Shown piece after piece: positions 50,276-53,499 of a stretch of DNA of 64,000 nucleotides. Made by a program: the position numbers and the translations under genes. Positions within the stretch are counted from its first letter, which is position 1. Every line of letters starts with the position of its first letter. The notes beneath the pieces were generated by a model. The model ran no database searches. It was not told the origin of the DNA and worked only from the letters and a program-made list of their open reading frames with translations. This stretch comes from Chthoniobacter sp. (lineage in GTDB: Bacteria > Verrucomicrobiota > Verrucomicrobiia > Chthoniobacterales > Chthoniobacteraceae). Where the stretch lies: the NCBI GenBank assembly GCA_021414005.1, contig JAIOPH010000031.1, forward strand, positions 111,973 to 175,972, written 5' to 3'.

Positions 50276-50791
50276 ATGACCAACAAAATTCGTATCTGCC
50301 TCATCGCCGTCGCCTTCATCCTCAGTGCGCCGGGGATCTTCGCTGCCGAGAAATCGCTCTATGAGCCGAAAACCGCGCAGAAGCTGGACCTCCACAAGCT
50401 CTCGTTCTTTGGCCCGCAGGCCTCGAAATTCAAGTATGACGCCCGCATGATCCACGCGGCCGAGATTGCCTCGGCCCGCGCGCGATCGCACTCCACCAGC
50501 CGCTGCTGGCACTACGTCAAAGACGCGCTGCTCGCGGCCAAGATCGTCGAGACTCGGCCGACCACCGGCTACGCCAAGGAAGCCGCTGCGGAACTCACAA
50601 CAGACTACGGCTTTCGCAAAATCAAGGAGACCAACCCCTACAACGCGCCCCTCGGCTCCGTGCTCGTCTATGGCGGCAAAGGCGCGGGCCACGTGGAGTT
50701 CCGTACGCGGCTCGGCTTCGTGAGCGATTTCGTTTCGCTCAAGCCCTCGCCACGCCCGCTCATCGGCATCTACGTCAAGCCGCGCGCGTAG
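50276..50791 (+). CDS. Secreted hypothetical protein, possible NlpC/P60-CHAP-like Cys-His hydrolase
   Basis: Signal peptide; RCWHYVKDAL (Cys) and LVYGGKGAGHVE (His). Confidence 0.55.
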   Translation: MTNKIRICLIAVAFILSAPGIFAAEKSLYEPKTAQKLDLHKLSFFGPQASKFKYDARMIHAAEIASARARSHSTSRCWHYVKDALLAAKIVETRPTTGYAKEAAAELTTDYGFRKIKETNPYNAPLGSVLVYGGKGAGHVEFRTRLGFVSDFVSLKPSPRPLIGIYVKPRA

Positions 50792-50826
50792 TCGGCGCGA
50801 GCGCGTGTCATAACGCAAATCCTCCC

Positions 50827-50854
50827 TTGCCGGGGCGCGCGGCCCCGCTAGTTT
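50827..50854 (+). promoter_or_regulatory. Candidate sigma-70 promoter upstream of the riboswitch
   Basis: TTGCCG-N16-TAGTTT, about 30 nt before the aptamer. Confidence 0.4.
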
Positions 50855-50882
50855 CCGCGCCAGTTCTTTTCAACACGCAACT

Positions 50883-50977
50883 GCATCACGAGTGCCCGGG
50901 CGATTTCCGCCGGGGCTGCCAACCTGGTTGGAGAAACCAAGGTGGAACCGAGCGACCGAGTGAGTCGCCCGCGATGT
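50883..50977 (+). ncRNA. SAM riboswitch aptamer (SAM-I clan, SAM-I/IV-like)
   Basis: P1 GCATC/GATGT; J1/2 ACGAG; P2 GCCCGGG/CCGGGGC; P3 GCCAACC-TGGTT...AACCA-AGGTGG; P4 GCGAC/GTCGC. Confidence 0.8.
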
Positions 50978-51047
50978 GCGCACCGGCCCTCTGCCGGGAG
51001 CGAACCGAAATCTCCCGCGATGCTCTTGTCCAATCGCACCACGCATC

Positions 51048-51269
51048 ATGTTTCAATTCTCGCTCCGGGTGAACCCGGCGAATCCCAATCATCATCTCTG
51101 GAACAACAACGGCACTTGGTTCATCCACTACGTCGTCCATCCCACGCCCTTCACGAAGGAGCGCATCCGGCGCACGCTCGGCACCAAATCGCTCGCCGAA
51201 GCCCGCGCGCGTCGCGACGCCATCCTCGCCGCTGCCGAAGCGCCGGTGCCGCTGGCGCTCGCCGCGTGA
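51048..51269 (+). CDS. 73-aa protein resembling an integrase Arm-type (DUF6538-like) DNA-binding domain, with no catalytic domain
   Basis: HLWNNNGTWFIHYVVH..KERIRRTLGTKSLAEARARRDAIL: three beta strands, then LGT, then a helix. Confidence 0.7.
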   Translation: MFQFSLRVNPANPNHHLWNNNGTWFIHYVVHPTPFTKERIRRTLGTKSLAEARARRDAILAAAEAPVPLALAA

Positions 51270-51302
51270 GGCGACCGCTTCTCGGGGAGTGACAGGTGGC
51301 GG

Positions 51303-52370
51303 GTGGCGGGCGAAAAGGACGGCGTGAACGTCATCGCCGCATATCGCCAACTCGAGGCGCGCATCCTCGCGGCGCTGCGCGCGGATTTACGCGAGGAGGA
51401 ATTCGGCGCGCTGGCGCTGGAGGCGCACGTTTTTCAAAAGCGCTGGAACACGCCCTACGCGAATTTTTGTGCGACGCGTCCCGCGGCGGCGCACTGGCGG
51501 GAGATTCCAGCGGTGCCGCAGAACATTTTCAAAAGCGCGCGCCTCTCGGTCGCGCCGCCAGATCTGGTGACGCGGACGTTTCGCACGAGCGGGACCACGG
51601 GCGAAACGCGGGGCGAGCACCATTTCATCGACACGCAGCTATACGACGCGGCGATGCTGCGCGGCTGGGATTTGCTGACGGCGCGCCGCGCGGACGCCAC
51701 GATCCTGCTCGTGCCGGCGGACACCGACGCACCGCATTCCTCGCTCGCGCACATGCTGGGTGTGCTGGCGCGCGAACGGTCGGGCGGGATGGCCTGCGCG
51801 GCGGTCGGCGCGGACGGGCGGCTTGATGGAGAGAGAGCGCGCGCGGCGCTGGCGGAGGCGTTTTCCCGGCGTCAATCCGTGGCGTTGCTCGGGACGGCGC
51901 TGGCATTTTTGCATCTCTCCGAGCAACTCGGCGAGGCGCGTCTGGCGGTGCGTCCGGGAAGTTTTGCGCTCGAAACCGGCGGCTACAAGGGCAGCGGACG
52001 CGATGTGCCGAAGACGGAGCTGTACGCGGGGATGAGCGCGCTTTTTGGGCTGCCGCCCGGCGACATTTTCAACGAATACGGTATGACGGAACTCAGCTCG
52101 CAGTTCTACACGCGCGGGCTGGGAGGCGCGCACGAGGGGCCGCCGTGGTTGCGCGCGGCGGTCTTTGATCCCGAGACAGGCGGCGAGGTGGCGGTGGGCG
52201 AAACGGGGGTGCTGCGGATTTTTGATCTGGCAAATCTCGGCTCGGTGCTGGCAGTGGAAACACAGGATCTCGCAGTGCGGCGGGAGGGCGGTTTTGAACT
52301 GCTCGGGCGCGACCCGGCGGCGCTCCCGCGTGGCTGCTCCCGCGCGGCCGATGAAAGGATGCGCGCGTGA
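51303..52370 (+). CDS. LuxE-like acyl-protein synthetase
   Basis: FRTSGTTG, LETGGYKG, NEYGMTELSSQFY, ELLGR...PRGCS; start uncertain (GTG 51303 or 51324). Confidence 0.85.
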   Translation: MAGEKDGVNVIAAYRQLEARILAALRADLREEEFGALALEAHVFQKRWNTPYANFCATRPAAAHWREIPAVPQNIFKSARLSVAPPDLVTRTFRTSGTTGETRGEHHFIDTQLYDAAMLRGWDLLTARRADATILLVPADTDAPHSSLAHMLGVLARERSGGMACAAVGADGRLDGERARAALAEAFSRRQSVALLGTALAFLHLSEQLGEARLAVRPGSFALETGGYKGSGRDVPKTELYAGMSALFGLPPGDIFNEYGMTELSSQFYTRGLGGAHEGPPWLRAAVFDPETGGEVAVGETGVLRIFDLANLGSVLAVETQDLAVRREGGFELLGRDPAALPRGCSRAADERMRA

Positions 52371-52422
52371 AGGCGCCGGGTCGCGTGCTCCCCCGGAACA
52401 TCGGGCGACAGTCTCCCTTACC

Positions 52423-53499
52423 ATGAACACCGCTACGCGCGCCGCCCACCTCGCCGCTCCCGCAGCGGGCTTCCCGTTTCTCGGACGCACGACGGCAGAC
52501 GAACTCCTCGCGCTGGTGCGCGCGGAGCTGGGGCACCCGGAGGCGCTGGATGATTTCGTCCCGTATGCGGGCCACATGGCGCAAGCCGTCGCCGTAAAAA
52601 CGATCCTTCATGTGATCAGCGGCAACACCCCCGCAGCGGGGTTGCAAAGTGTGATTCGCGGGCTGCTGCTCGGGGCGCACAATCTTTGCAAAGTGCCGTC
52701 CGCCGGGCTACCGGAGCTGGCGGAGTTTCGCGCGGCGCTGCCGCCGGAGCTGGCGGCGCGCGTGGAACTCGCTGGCGAGTTGCCGGACGCCTGGCTGGCG
52801 CGGGCCGAGGCGGTCATCGTCTTCGGGCACGATGCGACGATCGCACATTTCCGCGCTCTGGCGCAGCCTGGCCAGCGTTTTATCGCGCACGGACACCGGT
52901 TGAGTTTCGGCGTGGTTTTCGAGGATACTGCGGGCGCATCCGCGTCACTCGCGGCGCGCGACGCGTCGCTTTTCGACCAGCAGGGCTGTCTCTCGCCGCA
53001 CGTCTTTTATGTGGCCGGCGACGCCCGCGCGTATGCCGCACGGCTGGCGGAGGCGATGGCCGCCTTTCAAGCACTGGAGCCGCGCGCCCGCGTGGCGCTT
53101 GCCGCGGCGAATTCCATTCGCACGCGTCGCGAAGAGCTGGCCTTTCGCGCCGCGCAGGGCGAACCGGTGGCGCTTTGGGCCAGCGCAGATTCGACCGCGT
53201 GGACGGTGGCGTACGACGAAGCCCCCGGCTTTCCGCGCTCGCCGCTGAACCGCTTTGTCTTCGTCAAGCCGCTGCCGGCGGACTTCGCGGCGGAACTCCG
53301 CGAGGTGCGCCCGCACCTGAGCTGCGCCGGGCTCTGGCCGGCCACGCTCGCACACGCGCGCCAGCTTGCGCCGCTGGGCGTCTCGCGCCTTTGCCCGCTC
53401 GGGCAGATGCAAGTGCCACCGTGGACCTGGCTGCAGGACGGCGCGCCTGCGCTGACTCCGCTCGTCCACTGGATCGGTGCGGAAGAGTTGTGCGAGTAG
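52423..53499 (+). CDS. LuxC-like acyl-CoA reductase (short form)
   Basis: HVISGNTP, AVIVFG.DATI, FDQQGCLSPH (catalytic Cys), RLCPLGQMQ.P.W. Confidence 0.8.
   Translation: MNTATRAAHLAAPAAGFPFLGRTTADELLALVRAELGHPEALDDFVPYAGHMAQAVAVKTILHVISGNTPAAGLQSVIRGLLLGAHNLCKVPSAGLPELAEFRAALPPELAARVELAGELPDAWLARAEAVIVFGHDATIAHFRALAQPGQRFIAHGHRLSFGVVFEDTAGASASLAARDASLFDQQGCLSPHVFYVAGDARAYAARLAEAMAAFQALEPRARVALAAANSIRTRREELAFRAAQGEPVALWASADSTAWTVAYDEAPGFPRSPLNRFVFVKPLPADFAAELREVRPHLSCAGLWPATLAHARQLAPLGVSRLCPLGQMQVPPWTWLQDGAPALTPLVHWIGAEELCE

Follow-up and report, generated by a model that had tools for sequence, protein, structure and literature searches.

A SAM-I/IV riboswitch paired with a conserved, probably nucleic-acid-binding miniprotein in Verrucomicrobiota

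Riboswitches for S-adenosylmethionine (SAM) are known from textbooks for their control of sulfur and methyl metabolism. We analysed 64,000 nucleotides (nt) of DNA from Chthoniobacter sp. (assembly GCA_021414005.1, contig JAIOPH010000031.1, positions 111,973 to 175,972; hereafter the window) and found there a leader RNA which, to judge from its sequence, is an ordinary member of the known SAM-I/IV riboswitch class (50883-51023) and which stands ahead of an open reading frame (ORF) of 73 amino acids (aa). Our main finding is that this conserved riboswitch very probably controls the conserved gene of a tiny unannotated protein, hereafter the miniprotein, which probably binds nucleic acid and ends in a tail resembling a degradation tag. 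The cassette is common in Chthoniobacterales and Opitutaceae, and the pairing recurs across Verrucomicrobiota. In the full model that we favour, with a probability of roughly 0.6, the RNA works as an OFF switch for an unstable signal protein that binds nucleic acid; if true, the two constitute a compact two-stage sensor, in which an RNA senses the metabolite and an unstable protein relays the signal, and a family of at least 940 sequence clusters would receive its first function. Literature searches, as far as they reached, found nothing on the pairing of a SAM riboswitch with this miniprotein, nor on the degron-like tail, and a preliminary description of the locus had not recognised the pairing as a described system either. 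The RNA falls into an established class, and what appears to be undescribed is the protein family under its control, together with the pairing.

The leader RNA and its cargo

A permissive cmscan of 50780-51320 matched the SAM-I/IV model (RF01725, 'SAM-I-IV-variant') at 50878-51018 with 28.9 bits and an E-value of 0.013, in an alignment which spans the full model with an insertion of about 30 nt between P3 and the P1 3' strand. The Rfam gathering score of this family is 41.1 bits, and a scan of the whole 64-kb window at gathering score returned no match. The missing bits are lost mainly in the P4 stretch, which the Rfam model scores as an insertion, and relatives do pass the cut-off: one locus of the window's genus (L019) reaches 42.1 bits and five further loci (L041-L049) reach 45.6-48.3 bits. 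When the SAM-I contact positions are mapped onto the window RNA by way of the SAM-I sequence, the nucleotides presumably needed there are all present; they include the A-U-C of the P1 5' strand, which contacts SAM in SAM-I. The crystal structure of a SAM-I/IV representative, env87, was reportedly solved by Trausch and colleagues in 2014. The pocket nucleotides CAUC, GAG, CCAACC, GGUGG and GAUG all align to uppercase positions of the RF01725 consensus, and the SAM-contact positions of SAM-I are given in the literature (PMC6890682).

The SAM-I/IV class was described by Weinberg et al. 2010 (PMC2864571); it has a P4 helix (PMC6890682), and the combination of a plain P2, a P4 in the junction, P5 and the pseudoknot PK-2, with no PK-1, is what sets it apart from SAM-I and SAM-IV (PMC2864571 and its supplement; PMC6890682). 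The window RNA shares with this class the P1-P2-P3 core with a SAM-I-type pocket, the P2 without internal loop, P4, P5 and PK-2 (Table 1). Two things differ: its cargo is an uncharacterised miniprotein and not a gene of methionine (Met), cysteine or SAM metabolism or transport, and in the window's genus the expression platform appears to sequester the start codon, with no visible Shine-Dalgarno sequence. The P2 loop is variable in sequence and has, by eye, no conserved partner, that is, no PK-1; a SAM-I-type pseudoknot between the P2 loop and J3/4 was ruled out as a candidate on this ground, the loop varying without a matching partner. A search of the window's own genome for a SAM-II family riboswitch found none.

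Folding the leader as a single sequence gave a z-score of 0.03, which carries no information, so the case for the RNA rests on comparison across genomes. Related genomes were searched at the DNA level, and about 20 from the window's genus carry the leader and the ORF, with identities of 72-90%. When 20 orthologues were aligned with MAFFT (alignment A1), 95.3% of the cells were paired and 12 pairs had changed on both sides; in an alignment of 72 sequences, which is biased towards structure because it was fitted to a covariance model (R1) built from A1, 95.8% of the cells were paired and 24 of the 35 pairs had changed on both sides. None of 500 shuffles reached the observed values in either test, and when the partner columns were slid the pairing fell to about 40% or less in both alignments. 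The MAFFT-based count and RNAalifold, which predicted P2, P3 and P4 independently, both agree with the result on the 72 sequences. Among single elements, P3 does not vary inside the genus, and at the scale of the phylum it covaries, with UA/GC and UA/CG swaps; one position of the P1 5' strand shows a one-sided C-to-U change (C-G to U-G). PK-2 covaries through the pair sets GGAGA:UCUCC, AGGAGU:ACUCCU and CGGGAGCG:CGCUCCCG, with a mean helix length of 6.4 vs 3.7 when the tails are shuffled.

In the order, model R1 gave full-length matches in 62 of 401 genomes and in 23 of 93 genera, and 35 of 37 aptamer hits in the order were followed by the miniprotein gene. Approached from the other side, with loci of Chthoniobacter and Opitutaceae fetched through the protein, 72 of 80 named loci have the aptamer immediately ahead of the gene and on its strand; of the eight loci without it, four are cut off by a contig edge. 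At phylum level, 19 of 23 loci have it directly upstream. In at least 12 of the 20 loci from the window's genus, no more than about 120 nt separate the miniprotein stop from the end of a convergent gene, which leaves the miniprotein as sole cargo there. These counts support the miniprotein as the riboswitch's conserved cargo, and usually its only one.

Much of what the preliminary description had claimed for this leader is borne out. It had proposed a SAM-clan riboswitch, which can now be assigned to the SAM-I/IV class with orthologues above the cut-off and with covariation; it had placed P1, J1/2, P2, P3, P4 and the ATG at 51048 where we find them; the covariance-model match that it had anticipated came in the permissive scan only, with relatives passing the gathering score; and most of the homologous loci sampled keep the aptamer. 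Of the two further hairpins that it had drawn at 50983-51016, the first stands and corresponds to P5 (50979-51002), which covaries, and the second is better described as the PK-2 3' strand together with the anti-P1 segment. The pseudoknot, the logic of the expression platform and the C-terminal LALAA of the miniprotein are additions of the present analysis.

SAM is very likely the ligand of the window RNA. In one genome (G123:C54; L071 6986-8435, identical with L034) a SAM-I/IV riboswitch is followed by an 86-aa miniprotein and by metK, with an ATGA stop/start overlap, and this linkage supports SAM as the ligand and ties the switch to SAM biology. An aptamer that had drifted to another ligand, such as S-adenosylhomocysteine (SAH) or a SAM derivative, would explain the unusual cargo. 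In its favour are that atypical cargo itself, the sister SAM-I/IV riboswitches of the order, which stand before an AAA_5 ATPase and unknown proteins and not before Met genes, and the score of the window copy under the Rfam cut-off. We consider such a drift very unlikely, as the SAM-contact positions all match the SAM-I/IV consensus, the metK linkage is present in G123 and relatives score above the cut-off.

The sister riboswitches (L052-L065, in G149, G303, G317, G288, G082, G323, G277 and G346) score 41.7-51.4 bits and each has an intrinsic terminator; their cargo, an AAA_5/MoxR-like ATPase, a 'YPGIDY' protein, a HEAT-repeat protein and unknown small proteins, is unrelated to methionine. That SAM-I/IV riboswitches above the cut-off stand before AAA_5 ATPases and unknown proteins is a hint that the order has a larger set of SAM-responsive genes. 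In one genus the sister riboswitches occur as two or three near-identical copies per genome, and the 'GIDY' protein is also found downstream of the miniprotein in some genomes.

The miniprotein and its C-terminal tail

The miniprotein gene (51048-51269) is under strong purifying selection, with a mean dN/dS of 0.11 over 347 pairs and with 49 of 52 third codon positions varying vs 27 first and 19 second positions. It has 809 homologues of similar length, whose records all read 'hypothetical' and are assigned to Chthoniobacter or Chthoniobacteraceae. When 1.84 billion representatives were searched with a profile, the family grew to at least 940 clusters at 50% identity; the best 150 of these 940 clusters are all 67-155 aa long. 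The gene was found in 114 of 401 genomes of the order and, at phylum level, in 71 of 401 genomes and 30 of 185 genera, named carriers including Chthoniobacter, Lacunisphaera, Opitutus, Didemnitutus and Oleiharenicola. It is single-copy in its own genome, with no paralogues there, and NCBIfam holds no family for it. One could suppose that such an ORF, which is short and unannotated and resembles the first domain of an integrase only, is a decaying integrase fragment or a mere leader, functionless as protein. We regard this as highly improbable in view of the dN/dS value, the 940 stand-alone clusters of similar size, the conservation of gene and riboswitch together across orders and the monocistronic arrangement in many species; the narrower candidate of an integrase scar was rejected on the dN/dS of 0.11 and the breadth of the family.

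The resemblance to integrases concerns the arm-type N-terminal domain. Against Pfam, the miniprotein gave 21.7 bits with DUF6538 (PF20172) and 15.6 bits with Arm-DNA-bind_3 (PF13356), where the cut-off is 27 bits; DUF6538 was weakly matched by 52 of 53 family members at E < 0.1 (best E 7e-6), and in PHROGs the category 'integrase' was touched by just 3 of the 53, at an E-value of about 0.006. The family profile matched the N-termini of two Phage_integrase proteins (439 aa and 457 aa) with an E-value of about 1e-6 per genome, and hhalign against the N-terminus of the 439-aa integrase gave a probability of 96.2% and an E-value of 2.7e-9, with 47% identity over 47 columns. The significance of this match to a true integrase supports, at the level of sequence, homology of the miniprotein to the arm-type N-terminal domain of tyrosine integrases, as the preliminary description had proposed. 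Because the ORF stops after 73 aa, with the catalytic domain absent, and the best 150 family representatives measure 67-155 aa, the miniprotein is a homologue of the domain and not an integrase.

With the arm domains (DUF6538, Arm-DNA-bind_3, and the N-domains of lambda Int and Tn916 Int) the miniprotein shares a G-T-W-[FW]-x-H-Y strand and an R-x-S-L-G-T-K-x-x-x-x-A-R motif, and one of its two predicted models has three strands and a helix. It differs from them in being free-standing, with no core-binding or catalytic domain, in a 5-residue insertion (HPTPF) relative to the aligned integrase, in the extra invariant or nearly invariant NHHLWNNNG, H27 and H31, and in the degron-like tail. Across 53 diverse members (alignment A3), H15, W18, N20, G22, H27, R39, R41, L44, T46, A52 and R53 are invariant and conservation reaches at least 90% at H16 and H31, and the NHHLWNNNG motif and H15/H16/H27/H31 are absent from the aligned integrase N-terminus. 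The conserved histidines and WNNNG are encoded at 51090-51140 (residues 15-31), and they could form a metal- or ligand-binding site.

This fold is that of AlphaFold model 2, computed from the more diverse alignment (predicted local distance difference test, pLDDT, 76.3; predicted template modelling score, pTM, 0.58), in which strands at residues 17-20, 23-31 and 38-43 are followed by a helix (49-64) and a disordered tail (65-73). It has the three strands and helix that the preliminary description had expected; the structural side of that claim stops there, as no significant Foldseek match was obtained and model 1 differs.

On balance we lean slightly towards the view that the miniprotein binds DNA. 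The sole significant homology is to a DNA-binding domain, and the basic protein keeps the R-x-S/T-L-G-T...A-R helix-cap motif of arm domains. These two points also tell against the rival view that it does not bind DNA and recognises instead RNA, a metal (through the conserved histidines) or a protein partner. That view, which we think unlikely, draws on the structure searches, in which no DNA-binding match was significant, and on the invariant H15/H27, the H16/H31 conserved at 90% or more and the WNNNG, all of which integrase N-termini lack.

A more specific role on mobile DNA was also considered. As a free arm-type domain, the miniprotein would compete with or assist tyrosine integrases, as a decoy or directionality factor, and so couple integration and excision to SAM. 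The homology to integrase N-termini fits such a role, as do riboswitch-less paralogues adjoining tRNA genes in some genomes and the different positions of the cassette among species of one genus. We judge it improbable all the same, considering that the gene has a single copy, that purifying selection on it is strong and its vertical spread wide, that no integrase or mobile-element gene was seen beside the miniprotein in the inspected loci, and that the 5-residue insertion and the extra invariant histidines separate it from integrases.

The C-terminus of the miniprotein reads ...PLALAA, and its last five residues are the end of the transfer-messenger RNA (tmRNA) tag of its own genome, ADHEDLALAA; other tmRNA tags of Chthoniobacterales likewise end in LALAA. 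Among homologues, LAA ends 64 of 120 and AA 76 of 120. The genome background is 8 of 5181 long ORFs ending in LAA, and none in ALAA. The linker ahead of the conserved ending varies freely in length and sequence. With its LALAA on a variable, predicted-disordered tail, the miniprotein resembles the ssrA tag and natural ClpX substrates ending in LAA; the difference from the ssrA tag is that the tail is encoded by the gene and not added by trans-translation. From these endings, the tail is probably a built-in ssrA-like degron.

Expression platform and proposed mechanism

The anti-P1 tail CGCGAUGC (51016-51023) is complementary both to GCAUCACG, which comprises the P1 5' strand and J1/2, and to GCAUCAUG (51043-51050), in the start-codon region. 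On its own, RNAalifold selects a long-range outer helix in which the tail pairs with the 5' strand and a C-G to A-U swap occurs. In the 72 loci, a downstream segment of matching complementarity to the P1 5' strand and J1/2 is conserved, with a mean length of 7.5 vs 5.1 +/- 0.9 in shuffles; its pairing occurs in the versions GCAUCAGG:CCUGAUGC, GCAUCAAG:CUUGAUGU and GCAUC.CG:CG.GAUGC, and the second J1/2 nucleotide pairs with it as C-G, A-U or G-C, that is, with three pair types. When the aptamer was constrained to its folded state, most relatives showed pairing between the tail and the start region. The anti-P1 segment lies within or beside an intrinsic terminator both in family f13 of the order and in the sister SAM-I/IV loci of other genera. 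A U5 run is present in 40 of the 72 named leaders, mostly of Opitutaceae, and we read it as a terminator tail. In the window leader, a strict scan of 50700-51400 found no terminator, and by direct reading no Shine-Dalgarno sequence is visible ahead of the miniprotein ATG. The switch is likely to follow OFF logic; its design would be the usual SAM-OFF one, translational in the window's genus and transcriptional elsewhere.

The mechanism that we propose would work as follows. With SAM bound, P1 and the pseudoknot would keep the aptamer closed, and the tail CGCGAUGC would be available to cover the start codon by pairing with GCAUCAUG, blocking translation; in relatives, the same logic would close the intrinsic terminator. 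Under SAM shortage the tail would go to the P1 5' strand and J1/2 instead, the start codon would be freed and the miniprotein made. Its LALAA tail would probably lead to fast degradation by ClpXP-type proteolysis, so that the miniprotein level would track SAM, and the miniprotein, most likely through binding to DNA or another nucleic acid, would signal SAM shortage to its targets. One known relay from riboswitch to regulator begins with Vc2, a c-di-GMP riboswitch that stands ahead of tfoY in Vibrio cholerae. The window cassette shares with it a metabolite-sensing leader that would set the level of a putative DNA-binding regulator and not of an enzyme or transporter; it differs in its probable ligand, SAM, and in the candidate regulator, which comes from an uncharacterised miniprotein family with a degron-like tail.

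Several observations weigh against this model. On the RNA side, the window copy stays under the Rfam gathering score (28.9 vs 41.1 bits), and P1 has no two-sided changes (three pairs are invariant and two changed on one side), hence no covariation of its own. The unconstrained minimum-free-energy fold of the window RNA also pairs the start region; the contrast between the two states is weak here and clearer in relatives. One lineage of complete genomes of 2-3 Mb (g97) has the miniprotein without the riboswitch. On the protein side, both Pfam arm-domain matches lie under the cut-off, and AlphaFold model 1, of lower confidence (pLDDT 72.7, pTM 0.36), has another topology, with three strands and two helices. 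Foldseek searches of both models against the PDB and of model 2 against viral models (BFVD) returned nothing at E <= 0.001, and a profile search of PDB sequences returned just a chance DtxR match (E 1.6). As for the tail, about 37% of homologues have no AA ending, and the miniproteins of Opitutaceae end in AVA, VAA or AFA, their tmRNA tags in PLAA or LMAA; the degron reading is not equally supported in all lineages.

The preliminary description had gone one step further and envisaged a relay from riboswitch to transcription factor, possibly of methionine. The general idea is plausible from the sequence data. In its specific form the miniprotein would be the transcription factor of a methionine/SAM regulon, relaying the riboswitch signal to Met genes; its gene is under a SAM riboswitch, it is homologous to a DNA-binding domain, and in G123 it directly precedes and overlaps metK. 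The window's own genome offers other regulators for this purpose. It holds a canonical SAM-I riboswitch (RF00162, 71.7 bits; L200, G000:C27:356493-356617, minus strand) before a 467-aa threonine-synthase-like pyridoxal-phosphate enzyme, a ThrC-like, Met-type gene, so that two different SAM-clan riboswitches with different cargo are present in one genome. At G000:C23, about 110190-111114 on the minus strand, a 308-aa protein with an ArsR-type helix-turn-helix and a SAM-methyltransferase domain is encoded divergently from metK (about 111214-112389); in domain make-up and in location it matches methionine regulators of the SahR type, which respond to SAH. With a SAM-I riboswitch and a SahR-like regulator of its own, the genome does not need the miniprotein as primary methionine regulator. 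The metK linkage was met at one inspected locus only, the downstream neighbours varying otherwise, and no operator motif was found, no search aimed at one having been made. A role of the miniprotein as dedicated regulator of Met genes is therefore unlikely in our view. Beside the SAM-I riboswitch, a small ORF resembling a sulfur carrier of the ThiS/MoaD type follows the threonine-synthase-like gene at L200.

Returning to the model of an unstable signal protein under an OFF switch, its most speculative extension would make the miniprotein a short-lived alarm for SAM depletion, acting on DNA transactions and not on metabolism. It could be, for example, an arm-site-binding factor linking mobile-element or defence behaviour to a collapse of SAM, such as that caused by phage SAM-degrading enzymes, with the sister riboswitches driving AAA_5 ATPases and unknown proteins in the same response. 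We regard this as a long shot. PADLOC, run on the miniprotein and on the cargo of the sister riboswitches, gave nothing meaningful and no known defence family, which leaves the defence role without support.

Feature positions, neighbouring genes and other family copies

Table 1. Positions of the leader RNA elements, the miniprotein gene and its tail in the window
Feature	Position	Strand	Remarks
Conserved upstream block	50826-50882	+	Holds a promoter-like pair TTGCCG...TAGTTT (by eye) and CAGTTCTTTT; conserved in same-genus orthologues
P1 5' strand, GCAUC	50883-50887	+	cmscan alignment; near-invariant, always paired in the 20 and 72 sequences
J1/2, ACGAGU	50888-50893	+	GA conserved; second nucleotide covaries with the downstream anti-P1 segment
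P2 hairpin	50894-50916	+	Continuous 9-bp stem that lacks an internal loop and a kink-turn; two-sided changes at 8 of 9 pairs
P3	50919-50945	+	GCCAACC...AAGGTGG fits the SAM-I/IV consensus gcCAACC...GGUGgc; CAAC/GGUG are ligand-pocket nucleotides
Pseudoknot 5' strand in P3 loop, GGAGA	50930-50934	+	Pairs with 51011-51015
P4 hairpin inside the junction	50949-50971	+	5 of 5 core pairs change on both sides (72 sequences); insertion in the Rfam model
P1 3' strand, GAUGU	50973-50977	+	cmscan alignment; paired in the 20- and 72-sequence sets
P5 hairpin, 3' of P1	50979-51002	+	8 of 8 pairs of two P5 helices change on both sides (72 sequences)
PK-2 3' strand, UCUCC	51011-51015	+	Pairs with GGAGA of the P3 loop
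Anti-P1 tail, CGCGAUGC	51016-51023	+	Alternative partners: P1 5' strand and J1/2, or start-codon region
Start-codon region, GCAUCAUG	51043-51050	+	Repeats the P1 5' strand; sequestered by the tail in the constrained fold with the aptamer folded
Miniprotein gene, 73 aa	51048-51269	+	ATG at 51048, stop at 51267-51269; basic protein
Variable, predicted-disordered C-terminal tail ending LALAA	51240-51266	+	pLDDT < 50 at residues 65-73

Judged from its sequence, the conserved block upstream of the aptamer is where the promoter probably lies and where the transcript probably begins; a strict sigma-70 promoter scan of 50700-51400 found no site. The element CAGTTCTTTT (50862-50871), about 12 nt 5' of P1, is conserved throughout the genus and forms, in some species, an inverted repeat with AACTG right before P1; it may serve as transcription start, P0 helix or operator.

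Downstream, at 51303-53499, the window encodes an acyl-protein synthetase that is LuxE-like, with weak matches to AMP-binding and LuxE, and an acyl-CoA reductase of the LuxC family (Pfam E 1e-46). The LuxE-like gene starts 34 nt past the miniprotein stop on the same strand, and this neighbourhood is not kept in other species of the genus.

Outside the window, copies of the miniprotein family are also found without a riboswitch. In lineage g97, the copy L178 (G506:C1, 483-689, minus strand) ends in GIAA and lies about 230 nt after rpmB, the spacer being without a SAM-clan aptamer. A second subfamily (NPNHNIWNNNGTYWCHYTVHNDDYTK...) has no riboswitch (L039 at about 1150-1472, L071 at 1396-1698, L048 and L036), and its members sometimes stand directly after a tRNA gene, just upstream of the riboswitch-bearing copy. 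Some small genomes hold up to 6 copies of the miniprotein family.

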